Assembly: GCA_044507075.1 (NCBI GenBank)
Contig: JBIQKA010000014.1
Coordinates: 4,388-68,387 of the forward strand
Length of the DNA: 64,000 nt
Direction of reading: 5' to 3'
Source of the DNA: Myxococcales bacterium
GTDB lineage: Bacteria > Myxococcota_A > Polyangia > Polyangiales > DASUME01
Positions 12,580-62,553 of the stretch are shown piece after piece. Every line of letters begins with the position of its first letter. Within the stretch, counting starts at the first letter, position 1. A model generated the notes under the pieces. The model worked only from the letters and a program-made list of their open reading frames with translations. It ran no database searches and was not told where the DNA came from. Position numbers and translations under genes: made by a program.

Positions 12580-12644
12580 GGGATGTGCCCGAGCGCGAGG
12601 TGATTGTGCTCCGGGTGACGTCCGGAGGTGCTAGATGCAAAGGA

Positions 12645-14242: not shown

Positions 14243-15421
14243 ATGGCCAGCGATGATCTCGTTCTGACGCCCCCCGAGCCCGTTGCCGCCGTAACGCCGA
14301 GCAAAGCGACCGGTCTCGTCCCACTCAACGAGGGTCAGAAGTCCCAGCTCGCAACCCGCGCGGAGTCCTTCATCGACGAGCTGATCCAGCTCGACGCCAA
14401 CAGCCCGGAGTTTGGCAAGAAGGTGGAGCAGCTCACGAGCATGGGTCGGCGCGAGATCGCCGAGGCGGCAGGCCATTCCAATCGCTTCCTGGAGCGCCCG
14501 GTGAAAGCGATGGGCTCCGAGGGCAAGGTGGGCGCGGACCTGGCCGCGCTGCGGCGCACGGTGGAAGACCTCGATCCCGGCAAGCAAGGCAACCTGCTCG
14601 CGCCCAAGAAGCTGTTCGGGCTCGTGCCGTTCGGCAACAAGATGCGCGACTACTTCGACGGCTACAAGTCCGCGCAGTCGCACATCGCGGCCATCCTCAC
14701 GCGGCTTTCGAGCGGCAAGGACGAGCTGCTCAAGGACAACGCCGCGATCGACGTGGAGCGCCAGTCGCTGTGGGCCGCCATGGGGCGGCTGGAGCAGATG
14801 ATCCACATCGGCAAGTCGCTGGATCAAATGCTGGAGGCCAAGGCGGCCGATCTCGAGCATACGGATCCGACCAAGGCCAAGGCGCTACGCGAGGGCGCGC
14901 TCTTCTACGTGCGCCAGCGCCTGAACGACCTGCTCACGCAGATGGCGGTCTCCGTGCAGGGTTATTTGGCCCTCGACCTGGTCAAGAAGAACAACGTGGA
15001 GCTGATCAAGGGGGTCGACCGGGCCTCCACGACGACCGTGGCGGCGCTGCGCACCGCGGTCACGGTGGCGCAGGCGCTCACCAACCAGAAGCTCGTGCTC
15101 AACCAGATCACGGCGCTCAACACGACCACGGCCAACATCATCGAGTCCACCAGCGCGATGCTCCAGGATCAGTCGCGCACCATCCACGAGCAGGCAGCGT
15201 CGTCCACCATCCCGATCGAGACGCTCCAGAAGGCCTTCCAGAACATCTACTCCACCATGGACGCCATCGACTCCTTCAAGGAGAAGGCGCTCAGCAGCAT
15301 GAAGACCACGGTGGAGGCCCTGAGCAGCGAGGTCGAGAAGTCCCGGGGTTACATCGCGCGCGCAGAGGGCGCCGCGCAGGCGCATGGCGAGCATGCCGAG
15401 CCCTTCCGGCTGACCGAGTGA
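14243..15421 (+). CDS. toxic anion resistance protein, TelA/KlaA/YaaN family
   Basis: Full-length helical protein. ...SPEFGKKVEQLTSMGRREI..., LDPGKQGNLL, FDGYKSAQSHI..., LLKDNAAID..., ALDLVKKNNVELIKGVDRASTTT are typical of TelA. Confidence 0.8.
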   Translation: MASDDLVLTPPEPVAAVTPSKATGLVPLNEGQKSQLATRAESFIDELIQLDANSPEFGKKVEQLTSMGRREIAEAAGHSNRFLERPVKAMGSEGKVGADLAALRRTVEDLDPGKQGNLLAPKKLFGLVPFGNKMRDYFDGYKSAQSHIAAILTRLSSGKDELLKDNAAIDVERQSLWAAMGRLEQMIHIGKSLDQMLEAKAADLEHTDPTKAKALREGALFYVRQRLNDLLTQMAVSVQGYLALDLVKKNNVELIKGVDRASTTTVAALRTAVTVAQALTNQKLVLNQITALNTTTANIIESTSAMLQDQSRTIHEQAASSTIPIETLQKAFQNIYSTMDAIDSFKEKALSSMKTTVEALSSEVEKSRGYIARAEGAAQAHGEHAEPFRLTE

Positions 15422-48279: not shown

Positions 48280-48551
48280 CTGGGATACCTCCAAGAACTG
48301 CCCAAACCTCGCAGACTCCTTCGCGCCCATCAAGCTCGGTGGTGCAGGGCACAGAAGGCCTCGTCCTCGCCCTCCTCTGGGCGCCCGGGCGCTCGAAGGC
48401 GGGGCACGTCGCCTCCCGAACATCTCGCCGACATCTTACGGACACGCACCATCCGCGCGTTCCTCGCGAGGGGCGATCCGCCGCGCGATCGACCCACCAC
48501 GTCCCTGGGACCACGCTCCGCTAAGCCGCGAGGACTTCACGGTTTTTCCTT

Positions 48552-48578
48552 GTCTTACGATTTTTCGAATCGTATGAA
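48552..48578. promoter_or_regulatory. candidate NikR operator (autoregulatory) directly upstream of nikR
   Basis: GTCTTAC-N13-GTATGAA. The larger dyad is TCTTACGATT-tttcg-AATCGTATGA (10-bp arms, 1 mismatch). It ends 9 nt before the nikR ATG. Confidence 0.6.
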
Positions 48579-48586
48579 GCCGCTCC

Positions 48587-48997
48587 ATGAGCGACCTCGA
48601 GCGCGTCAGCGTGACGATCGAGCGGGAGCTGCTGGAGCGCTTCGACCGCTCGATCGAGCAATCGCAGCATCAGAATCGCTCGGAGGCAGTGCGCGATCTG
48701 ATCCGCAGCCGCCTGATCGAAGAAGAGGTGGAGAAGAGCTCAGGCCACCTGATGGGCACGGTGACGCTCGTCTACGACCACACGCAACGCGAGCTCGCCG
48801 ATCGGCTACTCGCCGCGGGCCATCACCACGAACACGTCACGCTCAGCACGCTCCACGTGCACATAGACAGCGTGCATTGCCTCGAGGTCACCGTGCTGCG
48901 GGGCGAGGCGCGAGAGCTCAAACGAGTGGCTGCGCATCTGCTCGGCATGAAGGGAGTCAAGCATGGCAAGCTGGTCCTCACGTCGCTCACGCCGTGA
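48587..48997 (+). CDS. nikR: nickel-responsive transcriptional regulator NikR
   Basis: RHH N-terminus RVSVTIERELLERFD...NRSEAVRDLIR. The C-terminal Ni site HHHEH...LHVHIDSVHC has the HxH-x5-C spacing of E. coli NikR H87/H89/C95. Confidence 0.9.
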   Translation: MSDLERVSVTIERELLERFDRSIEQSQHQNRSEAVRDLIRSRLIEEEVEKSSGHLMGTVTLVYDHTQRELADRLLAAGHHHEHVTLSTLHVHIDSVHCLEVTVLRGEARELKRVAAHLLGMKGVKHGKLVLTSLTP

Positions 48998-49790
48998 GCT
49001 CGAGAGGCTCGCAGGCTTGGCGTGGCTCACGTGCGCCATCTCCTGCGCGGACGCCGAGGAAGCCCGGCGCGTGGAGCTCCCCGTGGTGGTGGACGGCTCG
49101 TGCATGGAGCCGGTGGCCACGAACCTCGGCTATACGGTGCAGGTTCAAGAGGCGCAGCTCGCCGTGAGCGATCTGCAGTTCAGCATCGCGGGCGAGGTGC
49201 ACACCTCCTCGCGCGCGCCTCTCCGCGCGCTGTTTCTCTCCACCGCGCGCGCCCATCCCGGGCACTATACGGGCGGCGAAGTCACGGGCGAGCTCCTCGG
49301 CCGCTTCGTGCTCGACTGGACTTTCGGCCATGGCATCGAGCTCGGCAGGGCCACGCTGCTCGAGGGGCGCTACGACAGCGCCAACATGACGCTCGAGCGT
49401 GCGCAAGCGAGCGACCTGGCCGCCGATAGCCCGTTGCTCGGCCACAGCGCGTGGATCCGCGGGACGGCTGCCAGGGACGGCGCACAGATCCCGTTCGTGG
49501 CCTTGCTAGATGCCCCGCGCGGGCGGCAGATCGTGGGCTTTCCCTTCGATCTCCAGGTGAGCGCCGACACCGACGTCCGGTTGGGCCTGAAGCTATGCAC
49601 CGTCGACCCGCTCGAGCAGGACACCCTCTTCGACGACATCGACTTCGCGACGCTGACCCTGGAGAGCTCCGGGAGCTTCGTTGGGCAAGTCGTGCTCGAG
49701 GAGGCCAGCACGGCCCCGAACCTTTCGGCCTACCAGCGCCTCAAGCGCACGCTGCAGAGCCACGATCACTTCGTCGTTCATCCCCTTTGA
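48963..49790 (+). CDS. lipoprotein LP1, unknown family, His-rich C-terminus
   Basis: The ATG overlaps the nikR 3' end by 35 nt. Signal plus lipobox RRSRRELERLAGLAWLTCAISCA. Contains AHPGHYTGGE and ends QSHDHFVVHPL. Confidence 0.6.
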   Translation: MASWSSRRSRRELERLAGLAWLTCAISCADAEEARRVELPVVVDGSCMEPVATNLGYTVQVQEAQLAVSDLQFSIAGEVHTSSRAPLRALFLSTARAHPGHYTGGEVTGELLGRFVLDWTFGHGIELGRATLLEGRYDSANMTLERAQASDLAADSPLLGHSAWIRGTAARDGAQIPFVALLDAPRGRQIVGFPFDLQVSADTDVRLGLKLCTVDPLEQDTLFDDIDFATLTLESSGSFVGQVVLEEASTAPNLSAYQRLKRTLQSHDHFVVHPL

Positions 49791-49821
49791 AGCGCACGAC
49801 AAGACCAGGAGCACAAGGATC

Positions 49822-50550
49822 ATGAGCGCACCTCGACATGGATGGGTAGCCCTCGGCGTTCTCGCGATCGCCGCCTGCGGGAACGACACGCAGACGGGGG
49901 GCACGGGCACGCTGAAGGTCACGAGCTACGGCGAGGCCTTCATCGAAGAGGGGATCCCCGCCTCGGAGATGGCGGATGGCTGGTCCGTCGCGTTCAGCAA
50001 GTTCGAGGTCCGCATCACGGACGTGAGCGTGAACGGGCTCACGCTCGCGAATCCGCCGGCGGTCGACCTGGTGCAGCCCTCCGCGGGTCAAGGGCAGGAG
50101 CTCGGCAGCCTGGAGGTTCCGTCGGGAAGCTACAGCGACGCGCGCTTCGTCGTCCGCTCGGTTCACGTGGTGGGCAACGCCCAAAAGCACGACACGAAGA
50201 AGGACTTCGATTGGACCTTTTCGGCGCCCATCTCCTACCAGGCTTGCGAGACGACCAACGAGGTCCCCAGGAACGGGGTCGGCGTCTTTGAGATCACGAT
50301 TCACGCCGATCACTTGTTCTACGATAGTTTGGTCAGCGAGGACCCCGCGCTCGGCTTCGATGCGCTCGCCGCGGCCGACACGAACGGCGACGGGGTGGTC
50401 CATCAGGAGGAGCTCACCGCAGCAGACGTCGGCGGGTTCGATACCGGCAACGAGGACATCGCAAACCTCTGGGAGTGGCTGAGCGCGCTGGTGGCCACCC
50501 TCGGCCACGTGGACGGCGAAGGACACTGCCACGCCGAAGCCGCGATGTGA
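49822..50550 (+). CDS. lipoprotein LP2, unknown family, EF-hand-like loop and His/Cys C-terminus
   Basis: Lipobox GVLAIAACGN. Contains DTNGDGVVHQEEL and the C-terminal LGHVDGEGHCHAEAAM. The stop overlaps the receptor start. Confidence 0.65.
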   Translation: MSAPRHGWVALGVLAIAACGNDTQTGGTGTLKVTSYGEAFIEEGIPASEMADGWSVAFSKFEVRITDVSVNGLTLANPPAVDLVQPSAGQGQELGSLEVPSGSYSDARFVVRSVHVVGNAQKHDTKKDFDWTFSAPISYQACETTNEVPRNGVGVFEITIHADHLFYDSLVSEDPALGFDALAAADTNGDGVVHQEELTAADVGGFDTGNEDIANLWEWLSALVATLGHVDGEGHCHAEAAM

Positions 50551-52691
50551 GCGCATCCCGGCACGCGTCCTCGCGCGCGGGTAGGCGCCGCGCGCGCTTT
50601 CTCCCGGCGCTGCTCGGGCTCACGTTGCTCTCTGGGCGAGCCAGGGCGCACGAAGGGGATCCGCCCGCGGCTCCGGCGCGGGCGGAGGAGCGCCCCACGC
50701 CGCCGGCGAGCTTCGAGACCACGCGGCCCACCGCCTACGAAGCGCATGCCGTCGTCACCCGCCAGCGCGCAAAGCCCGCCTCGAGCGCGCACGTGCACCA
50801 GGCCGACGTGGCCTCCGTGCCCATCCGAACCGCGGAGGACGCGCTACGCCTGGTGCCGGGGTTGGTCCTCGTCCAGCACGGCAGCGAAGGCAAGGGGCAA
50901 CAGTACTTCTTGCGTGGCTTCGACGCGGTGCACGGGGCGGACATCGAGCTCACGGTGGAGGACATCCCGATCAACGAGTGGTCGAACATCCACGCCCAGG
51001 GTTACTTGGACGTGGGGTTCGTGATCCCCGAGCTCATCCAAACGCTCGAGGTCGTGAAGGGCCCCTTTTCGCTCGAGCAAGGCGCCTTCGCGATGGCCGG
51101 CAGCGCGCGCTACTGGCTCGGCATCTCCCCCGCCGAGCGCGGCGCGCGGGCCAGCTACACGGTGGGCACCACGGGGCGGCAACGCGTCTTGTTGACCTAC
51201 GCTCCGAAGGACGGTGACGGCAGCGAGTTCGTGGCGGCCGAGGTCGTGAACGACCCATCGTTCGGCCAAAACCGTGAGGCGCGCCGCGCGAACGTGATGG
51301 GGCGGGTGAACCTGATGAACTCCGAGAAGCGGGGCCGTCTTTCGCTCCTGCTCTCCGGTTACGCCGCCAACTTCGGGCTGCCCGGCACGCTGCGCATCGC
51401 CGACGTCGCGCGCGGACGCATGGACTTTTACGACGCCTACTTCCTCGACGGCACCGGCTCCTCGCTGCGCACGCTCGGCGCGCTCCACTACCACCGCGAG
51501 GACGCCCGGACCCGGATCAAAGGGGTGCTCTACGGAGGACTGCGCAGGCTCTCCCTGTTCGACAACTTCACCGGCGACCTCGTCGATCCCGTGCACGGGG
51601 ACTACCGTGATCAGCGCCAGCGCGCCCAGAGCTTCGGAACCCACCTGTTCGTGGACCACGCGCTTGGGCCCGAACTCGGCCTGCTCGCGGGCGCGGGCCT
51701 CACGGGCGACAGGCTGGATCAAAAGGAGCTACGCACCGACGAAGAGGGTGAGCTCGTGGCGCTGCGGCGCGGCCTCGAGGGCGTGCAGCTGCTCGCCTTC
51801 GCGCAGCTTGGGCTGCGTTACCAGCCGACCCGCCTGGTCACCCTGGAAGCAGGCGCGCGCGGCGACCTGGCTCACGCCAATGTGCGCGACGTGCTGCACA
51901 CCCAACGACGCCAGCAGGGAACCGAGGTCGCCTGGTCACCGCGCGCGATGGCCACCGTGCGCGCGCACCCGTTCGTGAAGTTGATGGCCTCCTATGGTCG
52001 CGGCATGCGTCCTCCGGAGGCACGCGCGCTCACCCGCTTCCGGCCGGCCATGCTCGGGATCTCCGAAGAGGACGCCGGCACGGCGCGCTCGCGTTTCACG
52101 CAGTCCCACACCATGGAGCTCGGCGCCAGGGTGCGCGCCGATGCGCGCCTCTCCGGGAGCGCTGCGGGCTTCGCCACGCTGATCGAGCGGGAGTCTCTGT
52201 TCGATCACGTCTCGGGCACGAACTTGGAGCTCAATGGCACCCGCCGCGTGGGCGCCGAGGCGTTGGTCACGGGCCAACCCTGGCCCTTCTTGACCCTCAG
52301 CGGCGATATCACCGGCGTCGACGCACGCTTTCGCGCCTCGGGGAACCGCGTTCCGTTCGCCCCTTGGCTCACGGGCGGCCTTCGTGCCGTGCTGACGCAT
52401 CCATCCGGCACCCGCGCAGGCCTGCGCTTCGTCGCGGTGGCCCCGCGGCCCCTCCCCCACGGCGCACGTGGAGAGCCGCTCTTTTTGCTCGACGCCACGG
52501 CCGGCTACCGCTTTCGCTGGCTCGACGTGTGCCTCGCCCTCGAGAATCTGCTCTTTCGCCAGCTACGCGAGGGCGAGTACCACTTCGCGAGTCACTGGTT
52601 TAGGGACGAGCCGCGGAGCGCCATCCCCACCACGCAGGTCATCGCAGGCCCCCCTTTCAACGCGCGCCTCACGCTCTCGGTGTTTCTGTAG
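50547..52691 (+). CDS. TonB-dependent outer-membrane receptor
   Basis: The GTG overlaps the LP2 stop. Signal ...LLSGRARA. Plug domain IRTAEDALRLVPGLVLVQHGSEGKGQQYFLRGFD...EVVKGPFS. Long beta-barrel region. The last residue is Leu, not Phe. Confidence 0.85.
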   Translation: MSASRHASSRAGRRRARFLPALLGLTLLSGRARAHEGDPPAAPARAEERPTPPASFETTRPTAYEAHAVVTRQRAKPASSAHVHQADVASVPIRTAEDALRLVPGLVLVQHGSEGKGQQYFLRGFDAVHGADIELTVEDIPINEWSNIHAQGYLDVGFVIPELIQTLEVVKGPFSLEQGAFAMAGSARYWLGISPAERGARASYTVGTTGRQRVLLTYAPKDGDGSEFVAAEVVNDPSFGQNREARRANVMGRVNLMNSEKRGRLSLLLSGYAANFGLPGTLRIADVARGRMDFYDAYFLDGTGSSLRTLGALHYHREDARTRIKGVLYGGLRRLSLFDNFTGDLVDPVHGDYRDQRQRAQSFGTHLFVDHALGPELGLLAGAGLTGDRLDQKELRTDEEGELVALRRGLEGVQLLAFAQLGLRYQPTRLVTLEAGARGDLAHANVRDVLHTQRRQQGTEVAWSPRAMATVRAHPFVKLMASYGRGMRPPEARALTRFRPAMLGISEEDAGTARSRFTQSHTMELGARVRADARLSGSAAGFATLIERESLFDHVSGTNLELNGTRRVGAEALVTGQPWPFLTLSGDITGVDARFRASGNRVPFAPWLTGGLRAVLTHPSGTRAGLRFVAVAPRPLPHGARGEPLFLLDATAGYRFRWLDVCLALENLLFRQLREGEYHFASHWFRDEPRSAIPTTQVIAGPPFNARLTLSVFL

Positions 52692-53511
52692 CCGGTGGCG
52701 CAGCGCTCGGCGTCGGGCGCACCACGCGGCTAGACACCGCGAACACGACGAACAACACCATCACCACCGCGAGACCGAACCCGAGCTCTCGGCCTTCCGT
52801 CCAGCCCTCCGCAGCCGGCCACAGGTACCTGGCGGCCCCCAACATCGCCACCAACAAAGACAGCGCGCCGACCGCCCCGCTCATCCAGCGCGAGGCGATG
52901 CGCGCCCGCTCGTCGGCCCGCTTGAGAAGGCTCGCGATCCAGAGCCCGTTTACCGAGTCGATCAGCACCATCCCGAGCGCGAAAGCGAGCGCGAGACCGA
53001 GCGCCCCGCCGCCGCCGCCCACGCGGCTGGCGCTCAGCGCGAACAGGGAGGCCAGGCTCATCGTGTCGAAGGAGAGCGCAAAAAGCGCCCCAAGGAGCGC
53101 GGGGGCGCCCGGGTGGCAGCTATGGGTCACGCGCTGGAACCAACCGGCACGGAGCCCCACCATGGGCACGCCCTCGCCGCGCGGGGTTTCCCAGACCGCA
53201 CGCAGATTCAAGATGCCGAGCGCCGAAAGCGCAGCCATCGAGATCGCCACACCCAGATCTTCGAACCAGCTCGGCACGAGAAAGGAGCTCGAGAGCGCCC
53301 CGGCCAGGATGGCGACCAGGCTCACCACCGCACCGTGACCGGCCGAGAACAGGAGCCCGCACCAGCGCGCGCTGCTTGGACGATGTCCGATCGTGCGAAC
53401 ACGGGTCAACCCATCGATGGCGACGAGGTGATCGGCGTCGAGTCCGTGTTTGACTCCCATCACGAACGCGAGCGCAAGCAACGCAAGCCAGTCGTTCATT
53501 CCGTTGGTCAT
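52669..53511 (-). CDS. NiCoT family high-affinity nickel/cobalt permease (HoxN/NixA/UreH type)
   Basis: TM2 signature KHGLDADHLVAIDG (HxxxxDH). Also LFSAGHG, LSFDTMS and GMVLIDSVNG blocks. The 3' end overlaps the receptor 3' end by 23 nt. Confidence 0.85.
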   Translation of the reverse strand: MTNGMNDWLALLALAFVMGVKHGLDADHLVAIDGLTRVRTIGHRPSSARWCGLLFSAGHGAVVSLVAILAGALSSSFLVPSWFEDLGVAISMAALSALGILNLRAVWETPRGEGVPMVGLRAGWFQRVTHSCHPGAPALLGALFALSFDTMSLASLFALSASRVGGGGGALGLALAFALGMVLIDSVNGLWIASLLKRADERARIASRWMSGAVGALSLLVAMLGAARYLWPAAEGWTEGRELGFGLAVVMVLFVVFAVSSRVVRPTPSAAPPATETPRA

Positions 53512-53590
53512 GCATCCCTCGATGAACTCCGGGCCCTGGGCGCGAGGACGCTCCCCGCCGCGCGCCTCTTCGCTCGACTCTCCCTCCGTC

Positions 53591-53617
53591 GTCTTACGGT
53601 TTCCACGTTCATCTTAC
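53591..53617. promoter_or_regulatory. direct repeat of the nikR-operator half-site upstream of the NiCoT gene
   Basis: GTCTTAC-N13-ATCTTAC. It has the same 7-mer and the same 13-nt spacing as the nikR site, but in direct orientation. It lies 80-106 nt upstream of the permease start. Confidence 0.4.
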
Positions 53618-53962
53618 CGGTCGCGCCTTTCGTGCGGCCCGCGCGTGCGTCATGTTCCCTCCTCTTTGCATCACCAGCGCGCGCGTAAATCCGCATCGAT
53701 CGCGGAAAGCCCGTAGACCATCCACCCCACAGGTCGGACGGTCAGAATGCATTTGCGACACCTACCGCTCCCGAAGCGTGCGCTCGTTCTCCTCCGCGCG
53801 CCCGAACACGAAGCGCGACGCACGTCTCTTCTTTTCGCTCTTTGCTGATGCCTGCGCTCAGACGCCGTAGTACGGTCTGTGGGTCGCCGCGCTCATGGAA
53901 GCGCGCAGCGACGAGAGCCCTCGCCTGAGCGCGCCCACGGGCGCGAGCACAGGAGGTTGTCC

Positions 53963-54880
53963 ATGGCAGAGCGCGTCGCCGCGAGCGAAGGCACCGTCGT
54001 CGACTTCATCCGCTCCACGCTGCGTGGCGTTGGGCAGATCGTCTTTCAAGGCCATGCGGGCACCGGCCTCTTCTTTCTCGTGGGCATCGGCTTCACGTCG
54101 CGCATCCTCTTGCTCGGCGCCGTGCTCGGAGCGCTCGTCTCCACGCTCACGGCGCGTCTACTCCGTTACGATGCGCAGGAGATCACCCAGGGGTTGTTCG
54201 GCTTCAACGCCACGCTCGCGGGCATCGCGCTCCCGTTCTATTTGGATCCCGGCTCGTGGATCACCTGGGCGCTCGTCGTCGTGGGCGCTGTGCTCGCCAC
54301 CGTGCTCACCCGCCTGCTCCGCCAGCACCTGTCCTGGCCCAGCTACACGGCGGGCTTCGTCATCTCCACCTGGCTCCTGCTCCTCTTGATCCACGGAATC
54401 GAGGGAACGGCCATCGATCACAAGCCGGAACCTTCGGGTTCGCTCCACGCGCCCAACAGCTTCGTGTCCGCCTTCCTGGCCGGAGAAGCCGAGATCATGT
54501 TCGGCTCGAGCACATTCACGGGGATCATGTTCCTGCTGGGGATCGCCCTCAGCAACCGCAAACACGCCCTGCTCACGCTGCTCGGCACCGTGGTGGGGAC
54601 GGGCCTCGCCTACTACCACAACGACCCCGCAAACACGATCCGCCTCGGAATCTATGGCTACAACGCCGCGCTGGCCGCGGTGGGCATCGTCCTATGGCGC
54701 GAGTCGCTCCTACTCTCGATCTTGGCCGCGGTGGTCTCGGTGCCGATGACCGAGTTCTTCCCCAAGGTGCTCGGCATTCCTCCGCTCACTGCCCCATTCG
54801 TGGCCGCCTGTTGGTTCGTGATCGCCGTCGGCGGCCTGGACCGCTACTTCAGCCACGTCGCCGGAGCGCACCATGCCTAG
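53963..54880 (+). CDS. urea transporter (UT/Yut family)
   Basis: ATG is preceded by AGGAGG. LRGVGQIVFQ...GLFFLVGI, GLFGFNATLAGIAL, GIYGYNAALAAVG and PPLTAPFV blocks are typical of UT channels. Confidence 0.85.
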   Translation: MAERVAASEGTVVDFIRSTLRGVGQIVFQGHAGTGLFFLVGIGFTSRILLLGAVLGALVSTLTARLLRYDAQEITQGLFGFNATLAGIALPFYLDPGSWITWALVVVGAVLATVLTRLLRQHLSWPSYTAGFVISTWLLLLLIHGIEGTAIDHKPEPSGSLHAPNSFVSAFLAGEAEIMFGSSTFTGIMFLLGIALSNRKHALLTLLGTVVGTGLAYYHNDPANTIRLGIYGYNAALAAVGIVLWRESLLLSILAAVVSVPMTEFFPKVLGIPPLTAPFVAACWFVIAVGGLDRYFSHVAGAHHA

Positions 54881-55050
54881 AGCGCATTTCACAAGTCCCC
54901 GCACCGCCTCGCGGGCGGCGCGGCGTCTGATCCGCCGACCTCGGACACTGCGACAATACCCCAGCATTGCCTCGGTCCGAGGTCGACGGATCCGACGCCG
55001 CGGCGCTCCACGATCCGGCGCGGGGATCTATGAAATGCGCTCTAGGGCAT
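54873..55050. repeat. ~178-nt imperfect palindrome filling the urea transporter-ureA spacer
   Basis: The outer arms CCTAGAGCGCATTTCA (54876-54891) and TGAAATGCGCTCTAGG (55031-55046) are perfectly complementary, and 4 more bp pair with a 1-nt bulge. Inner complementary segments: TCCCCGC/GCGGGGA, CGCGGCGTC/GACGCCGCG, GATCCG.CGACCTCGGAC/GTCCGAGGTCG.CGGATC. Confidence 0.85.
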
Positions 55051-55075
55051 CCGGCCCTGCACATGAGGAATCACC

Positions 55076-55378
55076 ATGCACCTGACGCCACGTGAGATCG
55101 AGAAGATAATGGTGTACTCGCTGGCCGAGATCGCGCTCAAGCGCAGGGCCAAGGGGATCAAGCTGAATCACCCGGAGGCGATGGCCGTGATCTGCGCGGC
55201 CGCCATGGATGGCGCGCGCGAGGGTCGCACCGTGGAAGAGGTGATGGCCTCGTCCGCTCAGGTCTTGAAGCTGAGCGACGTGATGGAGGGCGTGGCCGAC
55301 ATGATCCCCTTCGTGCAACTCGAGGCCGTGTTCACGGATGGCAGCCGCCTGATCACCGTCCACCAACCGATCCGCTGA
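55076..55378 (+). CDS. ureA: urease subunit gamma
   Basis: [35 protein letters not shown]...FPDGSRL-type full-length match (100 aa). Confidence 0.95.
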
Positions 55379-55408
55379 CTTCGCAACGCGCGAGCATAGG
55401 AGCACACC

Positions 55409-55822
55409 ATGACCAAGAAGGATGGCGAGGCACGGGTGCCGGTCGGGGGCCTGCTGCTGCGAGAAGAGGAGATCGAGCTCAACGCGGGGCGCGAGGTCGT
55501 CACCCTCAAGGCCCGCAACACCGGTGATCGTCCGATCCAGGTCGGGTCCCACTATCACTTCTTCGAGGTCAACCGTTTCCTCGAGTTCGACCGCGCGCGC
55601 GCGTTCGGGATGCGCATGGACATCCCCGCCACCACGGCGGTGCGGTTCGAACCCGGCGATGAAAAGACCATCAACCTCGTGCCCTACGGCGGCAAGCGCT
55701 ACGCGTACGGCTTCAACAACCTCGTGGACGGTTGGGTGGGTGGTTCGCCCACGACCTACCGCCCCAACTTCACGGAGGCGATGAAGCGCGCCGAGGAGCG
55801 CGGCTTCAAGTCCAAGAAGTAG
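55409..55822 (+). CDS. ureB: urease subunit beta
   Basis: [46 protein letters not shown]...LVPYGG. Confidence 0.95.
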
Positions 55823-55904
55823 TTCCGTCCAGGATGACTGGTTGTTCAGCTCGCGGGCGCAGCTGCCCGCCCCGAACGTTCGCCAGCACGGAGGCGAGGT
55901 TTCC

Positions 55905-57623
55905 ATGTCCAAGATCTCACGCAGGCAATACGCAGACCTCTACGGCCCCACCACGGGAGACAAGATCCGCCTCGGCAACACGGACCTCTACGTCGAGATC
56001 GAGCGCGACCTTCGCGTCTACGGTGACGAGGCCGTGTACGGCGGCGGCAAGACCATGCGCGACGGGGGAGGCATCGAAAACCGCCTGACCTCGGCAGCGG
56101 GCGCGCCGGACCTACTGATCACCAACGTCACGATCATCGACCCCTACCTCGGCGTCATCAAGGCCGACGTCGGCATGAAGGATGGAAAGATCGCAGGGGT
56201 CGGCAAGGCGGGGAACCCCAACACCATGGAGGGCGTGACGCCGGGCCTGGCAGTGGGGCCCGCGACCGACGCGATCTCCGGGGAACACATGATCCTCACG
56301 CCGGCAGGCATGGACGCGCACGTGCACTACATCTCACCCCAGCAGGTGTACGCCGCGCTCTCGAATGGCATCACCACGCTGTGGGGAGGCGGCGTTGGCC
56401 CCACCGACGGCACCAATGGCACCACCATCACCTCGGGCCCACAAAACCTCGCCTGGATGCTCCAGGCCGCGGAGGGCCTGCCGATCAACTTCGGCTTCTT
56501 GGGCAAAGGCAACTCGAGCGGCAAGGGCCCCTTGGTGGAGCAGCTCATCGGGGGCGCCGCCGGCTTCAAAGTTCACGAGGACTGGGGCACCACACCGAGC
56601 GCAATTCGCAGCGCGCTCTCCGTCGCAGACGAATACGACGTCCAGGTGTGCATCCATACCGATACGCTGAACGAGGCCGGCTACGTGGAGGACACCGTCG
56701 CCGCCATGGACGGGAGAACCATCCACACTTACCACTCGGAGGGCGCGGGCGGCGGCCACGCGCCGGACATCCTGCGCGTGTGCGCGGAGCCCAACGTCCT
56801 GCCGAGTTCGACCAATCCGACGCTGCCCTTCGGGGTCAATTCGATGGCCGAGCTCTTCGACATGATCATGGTCTGTCACAACCTGAACCCGAAGGTCCGC
56901 TCCGACGTGGAGTTTGCCGAGAGCCGCGTACGCGCGGAGACCATCGCCGCCGAGAGCGTTTTGCACGACATGGGCCTCATCTCCATCATCTCGAGCGACT
57001 CCCAGGCCATGGGTCGGGTCGGCGAGACGTTCATGCGCGCCATTCAGACGGCTGACACCATGAAGAAGGCACGAGGGAAGCTGCCCGAAGACGCTCCCGA
57101 CAACGACAACTTTCGGGTCCTGCGCTTTCTTTCGAAGGTCACCATCAACCCCGCCATCGCGCAGGGCATCGGGCACGTGTTGGGATCCATCACGCCCGGC
57201 AAGCTCGCCGACCTCGTGCTCTGGGAGCCCGCGTTTTTTGGCGCCAAACCCAAGATGGTGATCAAGGGTGGTCTGATCAATTGGGCGAGCACGGGCGACC
57301 CGAACGCGTCCCTGCCGACCCCGCAGCCCGTGATGTATCGCCCCATGTTCGGAGGCTTCGGCTTAGCCATGCCCTCCACCTGCGTGAGCTTCGTGTCGCG
57401 GGCCGCCTACGACAACGGCATCAAGGAGAAGCTCGGCTTGCAGCGCAAGGTGATCCCAGTGCTTGGCACGCGCACGCTCGGCAAGCAGAACATGGTGCGC
57501 AACACGACCCTCGCGAAGATCGAGGTCGATTCGCAGACCTTCGCGGTGAAGGTCGACGGCGTGCACGCCACGGTGCCGCCCGCGAAGTCGCTCTCGTTGG
57601 GCCAACTCTATTTCTTTAGCTGA
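55905..57623 (+). CDS. ureC: urease subunit alpha
   Basis: Start [28 protein letters not shown] with GGAGG upstream. Contains [37 protein letters not shown] and MVCHNL. Confidence 0.95.
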
Positions 57624-57702
57624 TCCCATTCAGCTCATCTGTGCGCTTCCCTCGCGGGAGGACGCGGCCGATGTCATCTCGCTGTAGCTCGCTGTCTCGC
57701 TC

Positions 57703-57721
57703 GCGGGTCGAACCGACCCGC
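57703..57721 (+). other. GC-rich hairpin in the ureC-porin spacer
   Basis: GCGGGTCG-aac-CGACCCGC (8-bp stem), with no T-tract. Confidence 0.25.
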
Positions 57722-57777
57722 TCCGACCGCAGTACTGGGCGTAGGTCATCGACCCCCTCACTCCCTCGGCACGCGAG

Positions 57778-59526
57778 GTGGAAGGCTCCATGTTCACCCT
57801 GGAACTGGCTGACGATCGCCAATCAACGCACACGACCTCGCATACGCCATCTGGCCACGGAGCGTGGCGCTCACGGCTGCGGCTCGCCTCGGCGATGCTG
57901 TGGATCGCCGGCTCGTCCGTCGCGCACGCCCAGGAACTTCCTCCACCACCTCCCACGCTCGAGGTGGTCCCCGTCGTTCCCGCGCCGGCCCCTGAAACTC
58001 CTCCCGGGCCGCCTGCCCCCTCCACGGCCGAGTTGGAGGCCGAGATCGCGCGGTTACGTCAGCAGAGCGACGCATCCCGAGCGGAGCTGCACCGGCTCGA
58101 ACAGGAGCTCGGCGCACTGCGTGCGCGCCAGGAGGTCCATGAGACCTCCACCGCGCGCGCGCAAAAGCCGCCCCCCGGCACCGTGAGCGGCGTGCCCACC
58201 CGCTACCATTCCGGCGCCTTTGGCCCAAGCACGCCCGTCGCGCCCGACGCCGACCACCAACCCATCGTCCAGGCGCGCTACGGGTACAATGGCGATGCGA
58301 CGGGGCCGCTCGGCGGCGGCGGCCATTTCAAGGCCGCTACTGCGGACGACGAATTCAGCGTCGCAGTGACCGCCCAGATCACCGTGGACGGCACGTTCTT
58401 CAACCACAACAAGATGCCCACGGACGAGCAGGGCTTCAACATCCCGTTCGCCCGCCTCTATCTGTACGGAAACGTCACCAAGATGGTGAGCTATCAGGTG
58501 GGCGTGCAGGGCTTCTTGGGCACGTTCAACCTGCTCGACGCGTTCTTCAGCTGGCACCTCTACAAGAACCTGACCCTGCGCTTCGGCAAGGGCCTCACAC
58601 CGCCGCTCTACGAGTACTTCTCGTTCAACCCGGCGCTCGAACCGGTGATCACGAACTCGCCACTCTTTCAGTTGGCTGCCAAGCGCCCGATCGGCGTCAT
58701 GCTCACAGGCACGCTGGCCAAGGAGCGCCTCGGGTTCTGGGCGGGGGTGAGCAACAGCGGAACGAGCCTGTTCGGCAACCTCGACAACAACGTCGACTTC
58801 AACACCCACGTCGAATTCAACCCCTTCCGGGGAGAGCGCTGGAAGAACGGCTTTCTGGAGGGCCTCGGCCTGGGCGCCGGCTTCTCGGTCGGCAAGCAAC
58901 GCTACGCGCTCGATCAAACGAGCATCGCCTTCACCAACAATGGCGAGGCCACCACCAACCCGAGCTTCGTCACCGTGGTGGGCATCCCCTGGTACGTCTA
59001 CAACGATGACGTGCGGACCGATGGTCAGCGCTTCCGCCTGGCGCCGCACCTTTACTACTTCGGCCGGGTGAGCCTGCTCGGCGAGTACATGTTTCATCGC
59101 CGCGACCTCACGAACGGCACCCGCGGCGGCATGTCGACGCAGCACGCGTATTACGTCAACGGTTCGGTCTGGCTCACCGGCGAGCGCGACTTCAAGGGCA
59201 CCGCCTTTCAGGCCTATGCCACCGTGGACCCCAGACGCCCCCTCGCGCGTGGAAGCCGGGGTCCAGGAGCGTTTCAGCTCGCGGGACAATGGTCCCAGTT
59301 CTTTGCCGGGGACCGCGACATCGAGCGCGGCTTGGTGGATGACACGCGCTCGACGACGCGCATGGACAACGTGATGGCGGGCCTCAACTGGTGGCCCAAT
59401 AAGCACGTCCGCATTACCGTGAACTACGTAAAGACCTGGTTCGACGAGGCGATCCCGATCCGCAGCCGTGGACCGAATCTGTCCTCGTATCAGACGGCGT
59501 GGTTCCGCTTTGCCCTGTTCCTCTGA
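57778..59526 (+). CDS. OprO/OprP-like (Porin_O_P family) outer-membrane porin with N-terminal coiled coil
   Basis: Signal ...AMLWIAGSSVAHA. Coiled coil AELEAEIARLRQQSDASRAELHRLEQELGALRARQ. Barrel blocks FNIPFARLYLYGNV, LLDAFFSWHLYKNLTLRFGKGLTPPLYEYF, RPIGVMLTG, GFWAGVSNSG. The start is uncertain. Confidence 0.7.
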   Translation: MEGSMFTLELADDRQSTHTTSHTPSGHGAWRSRLRLASAMLWIAGSSVAHAQELPPPPPTLEVVPVVPAPAPETPPGPPAPSTAELEAEIARLRQQSDASRAELHRLEQELGALRARQEVHETSTARAQKPPPGTVSGVPTRYHSGAFGPSTPVAPDADHQPIVQARYGYNGDATGPLGGGGHFKAATADDEFSVAVTAQITVDGTFFNHNKMPTDEQGFNIPFARLYLYGNVTKMVSYQVGVQGFLGTFNLLDAFFSWHLYKNLTLRFGKGLTPPLYEYFSFNPALEPVITNSPLFQLAAKRPIGVMLTGTLAKERLGFWAGVSNSGTSLFGNLDNNVDFNTHVEFNPFRGERWKNGFLEGLGLGAGFSVGKQRYALDQTSIAFTNNGEATTNPSFVTVVGIPWYVYNDDVRTDGQRFRLAPHLYYFGRVSLLGEYMFHRRDLTNGTRGGMSTQHAYYVNGSVWLTGERDFKGTAFQAYATVDPRRPLARGSRGPGAFQLAGQWSQFFAGDRDIERGLVDDTRSTTRMDNVMAGLNWWPNKHVRITVNYVKTWFDEAIPIRSRGPNLSSYQTAWFRFALFL

Positions 59527-59580
59527 GGGAGGACCGCGGCGAGCATCGGCTGTGCGCCCTCGAACACAAGGAAGAATGAG

Positions 59581-60213
59581 ATGAAGAAGATCACGCGCAT
59601 CGGAGTGGGCGGCCCCGTGGGCTCCGGCAAGACGGCTGTCATCGAGGCGATCACGCCGCTCTTGCTCGACCTCGGCGTCCGCGTCCTGATCGTGACCAAC
59701 GACGTGGTCACCACCGAGGACGCCAAGCACGTTCGGCGCACGTTGAAGGGGGTGTTGGTGGAGGAGCGCATCCTCGGCGTGGAGACGGGAGCGTGCCCGC
59801 ACACTGCGGTGCGCGAGGATCCGAGCATGAACCTGGCGGCCGTGGAGGACATGGAGAGGCGTTTTCCGGACAGCGACCTCGTACTCATCGAGAGCGGCGG
59901 CGACAACCTCACCCTCACCTTCAGCCCCGCGCTCGTCGACTACTTCATCTATGTGATCGACGTGGCCGCGGGCGACAAGATCCCACGCAAGAACGGCCCG
60001 GGCATCTCACAGTCCGACATCCTCGTGATCAACAAGACCGACCTCGCTCCCTACGTGGGCGCGAGCCTCGACGTCATGCGTGACGACTCCAAGATGATGC
60101 GAGGCACCAAGCCCTTCGTATTCACGAATTGCAAGGCCGGCGAAGGGATCTCCGAGCTGGTCGCGCTGATCCGTCAAGAGGTGCTGTTCGACCTCAAGCT
60201 CAAGTCCGCCTGA
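59581..60213 (+). CDS. ureG: urease accessory GTPase UreG
   Basis: P-loop [22 protein letters not shown] (CPH nickel site), ESGGDNL and NKTDLAP. Confidence 0.95.
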
Positions 60214-60227
60214 AGAAGCGCTCCGTC

Positions 60228-61136
60228 ATGCAAGCGACCGCCCCGGAACTGCTCCCCTACCTTGCGGAGCCGCCGCAGCTACCGAGCGGCGCGCCTGGGA
60301 AGAACGGGTATCTGAAGCTCGGCTTCGAGCGACAGGGCGAGCGCACCATCTTGCGCGAACTGGAGCGCCGCGTTCCGCTCCTGGTGCAGCAGGCGCTCTA
60401 CTGGGACGAGGAGTTTTTGGGCCTTCCCTGCGTGGCGATCATCTCGAACGCGGGCGGCATCGTGCAGGGCGATCGCTACACCATCGAGATCGAGCTGGGG
60501 GCTGAGGCGCAAGCCCATGTCACCACCCAGGCGGCCACCAAGATCCACGTGATGGATCACAACTATGCCGCGCAGACGCAGCACGTCCGGCTCGGCGAGG
60601 GTGCCTACCTCGAGTACCTGCCCGATCCGATGATCCCCCATCGCCATACGCGCTTTCTCATGCACACCACGCTGACCATGGCGCCCAACGCCACCCTGTT
60701 CTACGCGGAGATCCTGTCGGCGGGCCGCAAGCACCACGGGGAGGGCGAGCTCTACCAGTTCGATCTCTTCTCGTCGCTGGTGCGCGCGGAGCGGGAGGAC
60801 GGGCGAGAGCTCTTCGTCGAAAAATTCGTGGTCGAGCCGGGCCAGAGCCCGGTGCGTCAGCTGGGCGTGGTCGGGCCGTACGACGTGTTCGCCAATGCGC
60901 TGTTGCTCACACCGAGAGCATACGCCGACGCTATCTTCGAGGAGCTGGGCGCGGGCTTCGACGCGCGCGCAGAGCTCGCGAGCGGCGCAAGTCGCCTCCC
61001 CAACGACGCCGGGCTCGTGTTCAAGGTGCTGGGTATGGAGACCGAGCCCGTGCGCGCGAGGCTGCGCGAATTTTGGTCCCTCGTCCGCACCCACGTCACC
61101 GGCAAGGGCTTGATGAAGGAGCCCCCATGGCGCTGA
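60228..61136 (+). CDS. ureD: urease accessory protein UreD (UreH)
   Basis: Start MQATAPE at 60228. G.L.L.FER.G.RT, SNAGGIVQGDRY.IEI and TTQAATKI blocks typical of UreD. Confidence 0.8.
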   Translation: MQATAPELLPYLAEPPQLPSGAPGKNGYLKLGFERQGERTILRELERRVPLLVQQALYWDEEFLGLPCVAIISNAGGIVQGDRYTIEIELGAEAQAHVTTQAATKIHVMDHNYAAQTQHVRLGEGAYLEYLPDPMIPHRHTRFLMHTTLTMAPNATLFYAEILSAGRKHHGEGELYQFDLFSSLVRAEREDGRELFVEKFVVEPGQSPVRQLGVVGPYDVFANALLLTPRAYADAIFEELGAGFDARAELASGASRLPNDAGLVFKVLGMETEPVRARLREFWSLVRTHVTGKGLMKEPPWR

Positions 61137-61179
61137 GGGCGCGGACCCTCCTCGCACATTCATCCGAAGGAGCCAGCCC

Positions 61180-61839
61180 ATGATTCTGATCGAAGCGATA
61201 CTCGGCAACCTGCGCTGCGAGGAATGGAAAGAGAAGCTCGAGGGCGCCACGCTGGACGAGCTGAGCCTCGACCAGTGGCAGGCACAAAAGACGCGCCTGC
61301 GCACGACCACGCGCGACGGTCACGAGATCGCGCTCTCGCTCGACCGCAGGAGCCACCTGCACGATGGCGACATCCTGCACTGGAGTCCCAAGGACAGGCG
61401 CGCGATCGTCGTGCGTATCCAGCTCCAGGATGTGATGGTCGTCCACCTCGACCAGGTCGACAAAGCGCCCGCGAGCACGCTCGCTCAAACCTGCGTGGAG
61501 CTCGGGCACGCCCTGGGCAACCAGCACTGGCCCGCCGTGGTCAAAGACAGCAAGATCTACGTGCCGCTCACGGTCGATCGCAAGGTCATGGCGTCGGTGA
61601 TGAAGACCCATGCCTTCGAGGGCATCCACTATGAGTTCGTGGACGGCGCCGAGGTGATCCCCTTCCTCGCACCGCACGAGGCGCGCCGGCTGTTCGGCGG
61701 CGCCGACTCCACACCGCACAGCCACGTTCATGGCGATCCCATGCACGCGCACGAGGGGATGAGCGAGCCCCATGCCCATCCGGGCGGCCACGAACCGCAC
61801 ACCCACGCGGCTTCTTCGCCTGCCCAGGCGGGACGCTAG
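61180..61839 (+). CDS. ureE: urease accessory metallochaperone UreE with His-rich tail
   Basis: LGHALGNQHWPAV (GNRH-type motif). C-terminal HSHVHGDPMHAHEGMSEPHAHPGGHEPHTH. Confidence 0.85.
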   Translation: MILIEAILGNLRCEEWKEKLEGATLDELSLDQWQAQKTRLRTTTRDGHEIALSLDRRSHLHDGDILHWSPKDRRAIVVRIQLQDVMVVHLDQVDKAPASTLAQTCVELGHALGNQHWPAVVKDSKIYVPLTVDRKVMASVMKTHAFEGIHYEFVDGAEVIPFLAPHEARRLFGGADSTPHSHVHGDPMHAHEGMSEPHAHPGGHEPHTHAASSPAQAGR

Positions 61840-62553
61840 ATGAAGACGCGCGCAGCGCCGGGTGTCGCGAGCATCCTCGAGTTGATGCGGGTCTTGCAGT
61901 TCGGCGACTCCGTGGTGCCCGTGGGCTCGTTCTCGTTCTCCAACGGCCTCGAATCGGCGGTGCAGCAGGGGATCGTCCACGATCTGGTCACGCTCGAGAC
62001 CCTCGTAGAAACCGCCCTCGCGCAGGCGGCGCTGAGCGATGGCATCGCGCTCCTGCACGCGCACCGCGCGGCCTTGCGGGGGGAGCTGTCCGCGATCATC
62101 CAGGCCGACTTCGCCGTGCACAATCGCAAGCTCAATGAGGAGATGCGGCTGATGACGGTGCGCATGGGACGCAAGCTCGCCGAGCTCGCCGCCCACGTGT
62201 TCGAAGCGCCGATGGTCGCCGGGTGGCTACACGCCATCCGGGCGGGCGAGACGCCCGGCAGCTACCCGATCGCGCAAGCCCTCGTGTTCGCGGACGCCGA
62301 GCTCAGCGAGCACGACGCGTTCGCGGTGCATCAATATGGCCTCGCCTCGATGATGCTGGGCGCAGCGCTGCGGCTGATGCGCCTGAGCCACCTCGACGCC
62401 CAGCGCATCTTGTTCGCGGTCAACGGCGCGGCCGGCGAACATTACGCGCGGATCGCAGGTGCAAGCCTCGAGGACATGGCCAGCTTCGCCCCCATGCTCG
62501 ACATCCTGGCCAGCGTGCACGTGAAGTCCCACGTGCGGATGTTCATGAACTAG
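61840..62553 (+). CDS. ureF: urease accessory protein UreF
   Basis: The ATG immediately follows the ureE stop. LQFGDSVVPVGSFSFSNGLESAV... is the typical UreF N-terminal block. Confidence 0.85.
   Translation: MKTRAAPGVASILELMRVLQFGDSVVPVGSFSFSNGLESAVQQGIVHDLVTLETLVETALAQAALSDGIALLHAHRAALRGELSAIIQADFAVHNRKLNEEMRLMTVRMGRKLAELAAHVFEAPMVAGWLHAIRAGETPGSYPIAQALVFADAELSEHDAFAVHQYGLASMMLGAALRLMRLSHLDAQRILFAVNGAAGEHYARIAGASLEDMASFAPMLDILASVHVKSHVRMFMN

Follow-up and report, generated by a model that had tools for sequence, protein, structure and literature searches.

The stretch analysed here, 64,000 nucleotides of the Myxococcales bacterium contig JBIQKA010000014.1 (the whole of it being referred to as the window), carries between 48.55 and 62.55 kb a cluster of genes predicted to serve nickel acquisition, urea acquisition and urease. 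The cluster consists of two modules and is not one ancient regulon. The first comprises nikR, two lipoprotein genes (LP1 and LP2), a TonB-dependent receptor (TBDR) and a convergent permease of the NicO superfamily, and the second a UT-family urea channel, ureABC, an OprO/P-like porin and ureGDEF. In the explanation which we consider reasonably probable, the cluster was built in one Polyangia-like lineage by joining the two modules, each of them conserved separately elsewhere; substrates, direction of transport and regulation are deduced here from sequence.

According to this model, Ni-bound NikR would sit on a 27-bp operator and repress nikR-LP1-LP2-TBDR, and at low nickel it would leave the operator, so that the operon is expressed. 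The TBDR would then import nickel, free or chelated, through the outer membrane, LP1 and LP2 would capture the metal or hand it over, and the NicO/NiCoT-like permease would take it through the inner membrane. In the second module urea would enter via the OprO/P-like porin and then via the UT channel. Urease hydrolyses urea, and UreDEFG insert nickel into UreABC. The features of the cluster are as follows.

48552–48578, no strand assigned: candidate NikR operator GTCTTACGATTTTTCGAATCGTATGAA, 27 bp; inverted repeat, recognised by its position and by variants in two relatives (L082 and L085)
48587–48997, plus strand: nikR, 136 aa, nickel-responsive ribbon-helix-helix repressor (NF003381, Pfam RHH_1 and NikR_C)
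48963–49790, plus strand: LP1 lipoprotein (lipobox Cys28); no Pfam or NCBIfam family; GEvH, AHPGH and ThDH motifs; weak MbnP fold match
49822–50550, plus strand: LP2 lipoprotein (lipobox Cys19); HADH, EF-hand-like loop and C-terminal GHvDGEGHC; weak MbnP fold match
50547–52691, plus strand: TonB-dependent receptor, 714 aa; plug and barrel domains; mainly Myxococcota family
52669–53511, minus strand: NicO/NiCoT-superfamily predicted inner-membrane permease, 280 aa, about 7 transmembrane segments (PF03824; HX4DH and GHxxVV signatures)
53591–53617, no strand assigned: second candidate NikR site GTCTTACGGTTTCCACGTTCATCTTAC, 27 bp; direct repeat of the operator half-site, 80–106 bp upstream of the NicO start
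53963–54880, plus strand: UT-family urea channel, 305 aa (PF03253)
54876–55046, no strand assigned: near-perfect hairpin, 171 nt, separating the UT stop from the ureA start, recognised by its folding energy
55076–57623, plus strand: ureA (55076–55378), ureB (55409–55822) and ureC (55905–57623); Pfam Urease_gamma, Urease_beta, Urease_alpha and Amidohydro_1
57790–59526, plus strand: OprO/P-like porin, 578 aa (PF07396), extended at its N terminus by a Pro-rich and coiled-coil segment; narrow subfamily
59581–62553, plus strand: ureG (59581–60213; TIGR00101, 278 bits), ureD (60228–61136), ureE (61180–61839) and ureF (61840–62553); Pfam UreD, UreE_N/C and UreF

Layout and distribution of the nickel module

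All 15 genes were verified, by the listing of open reading frames (ORFs) and by Pfam and NCBIfam scans, in the order and orientation given in the preliminary description, and the gene calls on identical DNA in NCBI assembly GCA_044508025.1 (contig JBIQIM010000004.1) agree with them. The starts judged most likely are the ATG at 53963 for UT, 55905 for ureC, 60228 for ureD and 57790 for the porin. The G+C content of the window is about 65–71%, and the top matches of every unit belong to Myxococcota (Polyangia, Nannocystales and Bradymonadales), which bears out the earlier impression of a myxobacterium-like genome. The description of nikR-LP1-LP2-TBDR as a translationally chained operon holds as well, because its ORFs overlap or are closely spaced: nikR and LP1 overlap by 35 nt, LP1 and LP2 are 31 nt apart, and the TBDR starts with a GTG at 50547 within a 4-nt overlap with the LP2 stop (GTGA). 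A scan for sigma-70 promoters and intrinsic terminators was uninformative, and an Rfam search over 44–64 kb revealed no riboswitch or leader.

Among 8000 candidates scored, 333 TBDR homologs were obtained at E ≤ 1e-10, the named ones being almost all from Myxococcota. From these, 80 species-level Myxococcota loci with 10-kb flanks (designated, like the other loci of relatives, by L numbers) were searched with all 15 window proteins. LP1, LP2 and TBDR occur together in about 75 of the 80, in different orders (LP1-LP2-TBDR, TBDR-LP1-LP2 or divergent), and nikR adjoins the module in 10. The arrangement nikR-LP1-LP2-TBDR was found on five further contigs (L082, L085, L133, L134 and L135), each time with different flanking genes. 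Synteny across the 80 loci and the further contigs thus makes the four-gene operon a conserved unit.

The linkage of this operon to the urea genes has a very different distribution. In the 10 kb on either side of the TBDR, not one of the 80 species loci encodes a homolog of the window's NicO, UT, urease, porin or ureDEFG proteins, and the notion of a conserved, self-contained nickel–urease regulon is not borne out by them. Only L082, the TBDR of which is 77% identical, repeats the juxtaposition of nickel and urea genes, with the order nikR-LP1-LP2-TBDR-NicO(−)-UT(+), as far as its contig reaches. The block is therefore reproduced up to UT in one relative and absent from the 80 loci, and its placement beside urea genes is recent and lineage-specific, since L082 is the sole exception to the lack of linkage.

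At the L082 contig end, just after UT (14390–14466), a GC-rich hairpin, GAAGCGGGCGGCTCCGCCCGCGAGC, is present as a tandem duplication; the repeats may have broken the assembly at the point at which the window has its long hairpin. On the other side of the cluster, directly upstream of nikR and divergent from it, a minus-strand ORF extends over 45730–48423 (897 aa; 849 aa in the contig calls). Its only family match is a sub-threshold VWA hit, and because the ORF is not kept beside nikR in L082 or L085, the left boundary of the cluster is drawn here.

Candidate NikR operators and the extent of the predicted regulon

The regulator itself is well identified, with 160.8 bits for NF003381 (cutoff 105), 31 bits for RHH_1 and 90.8 bits for NikR_C. 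Its nickel-site columns align with H76, H87, H89 and C95 of E. coli NikR, a comparison that we treat as a soft test. The dyad noted previously, TCTTACGATT-N5-AATCGTATGA at 48553–48577, was recovered within the 27-bp operator, which ends 8 nt before the nikR ATG. All nikR-linked relatives have a near-perfect GTGTTAC-N13/14-GTAACAC (or GTATTAC...GTAATAC) box 10–40 bp upstream of nikR, and the position of the window operator is equivalent to that of the strong boxes of the 10 nikR-linked loci. This box is the published delta-proteobacterial NikR consensus (PMC545781). Scanning 1.4 Mb of loci with a position weight matrix (PWM) derived from the relatives' boxes gave strong sites only before nikR or LP1, two loci (L023 and L030) having the box before LP1 with no adjacent nikR. 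Altogether nikR, the box or both are present in about 14 of the approximately 75 loci with LP1, LP2 and TBDR.

Other palindromes were seen upstream of LP1. In L007 (6637–6664) everted half-sites, GTAACAC-N14-GTGCTAC, precede LP1, and in L004 an apparent everted NikR box was judged by eye, in both cases with no adjacent nikR. These everted sites resemble the reversed sites reported for Desulfotalea (PMC545781). In modules without NikR boxes (L016, L003 and L026) different AT-rich palindromes occur in this position, for instance TGCAGAA-N6-TTCTGCA in L016, and the same module may be under different regulators in other lineages.

The operator of the window is read as a degenerate, lineage-specific form of the NikR box; it is not taken for noise, because its two closest relatives share the variant (GTCATACGATTCTCGAAATCGTAGGAA in L082 and GTCTTACGATTTTTCGAAAGGTAGGGA in L085). 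The NikR proteins with the divergent operator, GTCWTAC...GTAKGRA (window, L082 and L085), have the beta-strand ERVSVTI/V at residues 5–11 (48587–48640), and those with canonical GTGTTAC boxes have T/VRASLSI as the DNA-reading beta-strand. Operator drift may thus be explained by co-variation with the strand that reads it.

Beyond nikR, the half-site GTCTTACG has exactly two copies in the 64 kb, one in the nikR operator and the other at 53591, upstream of NicO. The second site has the same 27-bp length as the operator, with the half-sites in direct orientation, and is the sole conserved island in the alignment of the NicO-UT intergenic region with that of L082. Because this second copy lies in its promoter region, the permease gene is probably also under NikR control. 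Searches across the window with the inner dyad TACGATT-N5-AATCGTA (up to 3 mismatches) and with the 9-nt half-site PWM in inverted orientation gave the nikR site only, and the 7-nt half-site PWM in all four orientations gave no site of at least 11 bits. For the urease, UT and porin promoters, NikR boxes like those of the relatives were considered and rejected, as neither half-site PWM scan produced a match there.

With neither the relatives' PWMs, nor the inner dyad, nor the lineage half-site was a NikR-type site found upstream of UT, ureA, porin or ureG. The predicted NikR regulon consequently comprises nikR-LP1-LP2-TBDR, probably NicO, and not the urea half, which is probably regulated separately. 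It had been suggested that the whole 14 kb would be one self-contained NikR regulon, in which nickel also controls UT, urease, porin and accessory genes, in the way in which ureA is controlled by NikR in Helicobacter pylori. All parts are indeed physically contiguous and kept together at least up to UT in L082, the NikR of H. pylori is reported to regulate urease, FrpB4 and FecA3, and poorly palindromic NikR sites exist, so that sites may escape detection. We nevertheless regard a single regulon as unlikely, in view of the missing sites in any orientation, of the two halves being unlinked in the 80 other species, of the 171-nt hairpin that separates UT from ureA, and of UT-porin-urease sets existing elsewhere with no nickel transporter (none was found in the flanks examined beside those of L087, L100, L086 and L088).

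The lipoprotein pair, the receptor and the permease

The TBDR has a plug domain (PF07715, 55 bits) and a barrel domain (PF00593, 65 bits), and its nearest solved structures are PqqU/YncD, at only E 1e-12; no NCBIfam equivalog matched it. Both LP1 and LP2 carry lipoprotein signal peptides, and neither gave an NCBIfam match at E ≤ 0.01 or a Pfam family above cutoff, a DUF4382 match of LP2 remaining below it. The two are paralogous (hhalign probability 96.6%, E 4.9e-10). In the alignments the invariant residues of LP2 are C19 (the lipobox), C142, H161-A-D163-H164, an EF-hand-like loop and G-H229-x-D-G-E-G-H235-C236; those of LP1 are C28, E78, A-H98-P-G-H101 and G105, with H80 and H267 (in THDH) conserved in at least 90% of the sequences. 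Whether or not a locus shows a NikR signal, these His/Cys/Asp motifs are just as invariant. The chemistry of the lipoproteins is for this reason family-wide, and it is the NikR and NicO context, not the motifs, that points to nickel.

The AF2 models of LP2 and LP1 (pLDDT 91.1 and 89.6) were compared with solved structures by Foldseek, and MbnP was the sole meaningful match for both. For LP1 the match with MbnP (7L6G) had a probability of 0.97–1.0 and E 5e-4 to 1.6e-3, with a TM score of only 0.30–0.38, and for LP2 the probability was about 0.8 with a TM score of 0.33. A search of the PDB sequences with a profile made from the aligned LP1 proteins yielded no real relative. MbnP (PDB 7L6G), to which LP1 and LP2 are likened by this weak fold match, is an extracytoplasmic metal binder whose genes commonly neighbour those of TonB-dependent transporters (PMC3621798). 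Its defining features are the dihaem peroxidase partner MbnH and a WxW motif in which Trp is converted to kynurenine (PMC3621798, PMC11951088).

From these features the lipoproteins differ clearly. MbnP pairs with MbnH, often beside the TonB-dependent transporter MbnT, and no MbnH gene was found in the operon here or in the operons of annotated relatives; the WxW motif is absent from the LP1 and LP2 alignments, which have WxF instead. The metal site of MbnP is made of His, Met and kynurenine, and LP1 and LP2 have conserved His/Cys/Asp motifs in its place. They are moreover lipoproteins, form a paralogous pair and are accompanied by NikR and not by a copper system. Since the MbnH partner, the WxW/kynurenine site and a match to a sequence model are all lacking, LP1 and LP2 are not counted as members of the MbnP family; they may nevertheless function in the manner of MbnP, binding metal outside the cytoplasm for a TonB-dependent receptor.

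The permease, previously called a NiCoT, keeps the NiCoT-type signatures, KHGLDADH at residues 21–28 (HX4DH) and FSAGHGAVV at 55–63, in accordance with the NiCoT definitions (HX4DH and a GHSxVV-like motif in the next helix). It is not a canonical NiCoT: the hydropathy profile of the 280 residues gives about 7 hydrophobic segments and not the 8-transmembrane architecture, and the match to TIGR00802 covers only residues 14–103, with 61.2 bits against a cutoff of 333. The match to PF03824 has 46.5 bits. The same gene is present in L082. The protein is probably an importer of the NicO superfamily.

Permeases of this superfamily accompany the module in other lineages too. A different NicO-type gene is located upstream of TBDR in L072 (8437–9210), L073, L077 and L079, and directly downstream of the module in L021 (nikR-linked, approximately 11980–12780), L013 and L010. 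This second type has an RHAFEPDH motif (HX4DH) and a His-rich loop, HAHAHGDRMHVH. A protein of the HupE/UreJ type was found near the module in one further locus. The recurrent pairing of the module with nickel/cobalt-type permeases is independent support for a predicted outer- plus inner-membrane metal route, and together with the NikR boxes conserved in relatives it agrees with the nickel logic put forward for both membranes.

Several observations weigh against the explanation preferred here. The window operator is weak, with 12.5 bits against 25–34 bits for the relatives on the same 9-nt half-site PWM and less than 11 bits on the 7-nt model, its right half being degenerate, and a symmetric NikR tetramer would not usually be expected on direct half-sites such as those at NicO. 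In L082 the conservation of the cluster can be followed only up to UT, after which the contig ends. The permease fails the cutoff of the NiCoT model, and PF03824 also contains exporters. The nearest fold match of the lipoproteins, MbnP, is a copper protein, the TM scores being low. Finally, about 65 of the 80 LP1-LP2-TBDR loci have no NikR signal, with identical lipoprotein motifs, and on that account nickel is a tentative assignment for the TBDR family.

The last two points could be taken to mean that LP1-LP2-TBDR carries another cargo (copper, cobalt, zinc or a metallophore) and that its nickel link is a matter of regulation in a minority of lineages. The top fold match to copper-binding MbnP, whose genes are often beside TonB-dependent transporters, would accord with this, as would the HMA-domain genes found within 10 kb of the TBDR in six loci; NicO-family carriers move cobalt too. 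Yet NikR is the only metal regulator that recurs in the operon, with its box at the promoter, the neighbouring permeases are of the NicO type, neither an MbnH partner nor a WxW motif is found, and with no NCBIfam match to LP1 or LP2 the MbnP model is unmatched as well. We therefore think another cargo improbable, and nickel remains the metal favoured for the module.

Even less probable is the suggestion that the NicO-like protein is an RcnA-like nickel/cobalt exporter protecting the cell. The family does include RcnA-type exporters, the protein is short and below the NiCoT subfamily cutoff, and an RcnA-like His-rich loop occurs in the other NicO type, found close to the module in Kofleriaceae. 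Against export are the importer-type signature [KR]HxxDADH...GHxxVV with no His-rich loop, the importers HoxN/HupN/NixA and NicT as the best NCBIfam models (far below cutoff), the placement between an uptake receptor and urease, and the NikR half-site upstream, which would fit repression at high nickel and hence suit an importer.

The urea module and comparison with known systems

The UT protein matches PF03253 with 205 bits over profile positions 1–290 of 292, and as it scores 175 bits with the Yut equivalog model TIGR03441 (cutoff 274.6) it is placed in the family and is not a Yut equivalog. The urease set is complete, UreA, UreB and UreC being accompanied by UreD, UreE, UreF and UreG, with strong Pfam and TIGR matches. 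The porin matches PF07396 (Porin_O_P) with 52.1 bits (cutoff 20.9). An exhaustive phmmer search of 1.84 billion proteins gave 27 representatives of it at E ≤ 1e-30, and Gemmataceae proteins are among the cluster members.

A metagenome scan seeded with a 9-sequence porin alignment yielded 47 loci, of which 18 contain close homologs (at least 36% identity). UT genes, urease genes or both adjoin the porin in 10 of these 18, in the following arrangements.

L087: porin divergent from UT-ureABC-ureEFGD
L100 and L102: UT-ureABC divergent from ureEFGD-porin
L090 and L103: ureABC-ureFGD divergent from porin, no UT
L088, L089, L094 and L095: bare divergent UT-porin pair
L098: ureD immediately upstream of porin

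The urease identity of the porin-linked loci to the window is 47–80%, which means that they represent different lineages. The bare UT-porin pair suggests a stand-alone unit for the entry of urea, and in L088 no urease was found within its 15 kb. A predicted role of the porin in urea passage is in this way supported by synteny, in keeping with the proposal of an outer-membrane and an inner-membrane step for urea. In the window the accessory order is ureG-D-E-F, with the porin between ureC and ureG, as against ureE-F-G-D in L087, L100 and L102, and by this difference the urea module has been rearranged in the present lineage.

It could be argued that the protein is a common type of anion or phosphate porin, located in the urease operon by chance and without a role for urea. 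Its Pfam Porin_O_P and OprO/OprP structure matches are of that kind, a molecule as small as urea may pass general porins, and L086 has a close homolog with no urea genes nearby. However, the OprO/OprP match is limited to the C-terminal third (profile positions 403–541), the association with UT, urease or both takes at least three arrangements in ureases of widely different identity, a divergent UT-porin pair exists with no urease at all, the genomic context is that of urea and not of pst/pho genes, and FmdC is a precedent for a porin of urea and short-chain amides. A chance insertion is accordingly very unlikely in our view, and a urea porin is retained as the favoured reading.

The hairpin at 54876–55046 extends from the UT stop codon to 30 nt before the ureA ATG (dG −127.6 kcal/mol, z −12.2); the 64 kb contain no other long inverted repeat. 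The UT-ureA gaps of L087, L100 and L102 are about 60–80 bp. A conserved regulatory RNA was rejected on the grounds of these short gaps and of the lack of a second copy in the window; being absent from the gaps of other lineages, the hairpin looks like an inserted palindromic element, and it could act as a terminator, an insulator or a processing site. The only Rfam match above gathering was to 5_ureB_sRNA at 56063–56355 on the minus strand, antisense inside ureC (49.1 bits against 40, E 2.5e-10). It is most likely a by-product of coding conservation with H. pylori ureB, an antisense RNA being less likely.

The closest functional parallel is provided by H. pylori, in which the NikR-controlled TonB-dependent receptors FrpB4 and FecA3 feed urease. 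By analogy, the earlier idea of the same logic with different parts is consistent with the present findings: NikR control of the TBDR is predicted here, and the NicO-like protein would fill the role of the inner-membrane NiCoT-type permease NixA. The TBDR belongs to a mainly Myxococcota family and is likened to FrpB4 and FecA3 by role and not by sequence comparison; accessory lipoproteins are not described for the H. pylori receptors, whereas LP1 and LP2 are present here, and, in contrast to the NikR control of ureA in H. pylori, the urease genes of the window yielded no NikR site. The nickel-uptake genes of H. pylori are scattered and not known to be clustered with urease; here they are clustered.

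Predicted NikR-regulated TonB-dependent transporters of other proteobacteria, listed as Ni(II) transporters in PMC11247825, include Bll6948, Daro_3944, Rgel01002199 and NikH. For these, nickel was deduced from the genes nearby or from NikR boxes, which share the 27–28 bp architecture. The TBDR of the window represents a different receptor family, encoded together with a pair of paralogous lipoproteins whose fold weakly matches MbnP.

With regard to the urea half, the urease genes of Yersinia adjoin the UT-family urea channel Yut (PMC7156557). The Yersinia locus has no nikR, TonB-dependent receptor, lipoproteins or dedicated porin, and its accessory order is ureEFGD, in place of ureGDEF following an inserted porin gene here. 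Sebbane et al. are said to have reported in 2002 that a NiCoT-type nickel permease flanks that locus. FmdC of Methylophilus methylotrophus and fmdC-annotated porins near Nitrospira urea genes tie porins to the use of urea or amides and may act at low substrate concentration, a likeness by description. Whereas FmdC-type porins are linked to formamidase or the Urt ABC system, the porin here is paired with a UT channel and has a long N-terminal coiled-coil extension.

In literature searches no published description of the LP-paired Myxococcota receptor family or of the UT-associated porin subfamily was found. The receptor family with its obligatory lipoprotein pair, the UT-associated porin subfamily and their assembly in one locus appear to be new. 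It is tempting to speculate further that nikR-LP1-LP2-TBDR is an undescribed, mainly myxobacterial outer-membrane nickel-acquisition family, in which the lipoproteins would be a nickel counterpart of MbnP needing neither the kynurenine cofactor nor MbnH, with AHPGH/THDH and HADH/GHxDGEGHC as the sites, and that the OprO/P-like porins are dedicated urea porins paired with UT across phyla. This wider proposal is a serious possibility that we hold tentatively, with less confidence than the joining of two modules.

The cluster is chiefly guilt-by-association evidence tying two uncharacterised families to nickel and urea, and implies no new principle. Outer-membrane passage of nickel is known in detail for very few bacteria, and the locus with its hundreds of relatives points to a three-protein outer-membrane system with candidate metal ligands and a recognisable NikR switch. 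Some of the carriers can be cultured, among them Plesiocystis pacifica, Lujinxingia vulgaris, Enhygromyxa salina and Nannocystis exedens. In its pairing with UT, the porin is a candidate for a dedicated outer-membrane route of urea, which would be relevant to urea scavenging in soils and sediments.

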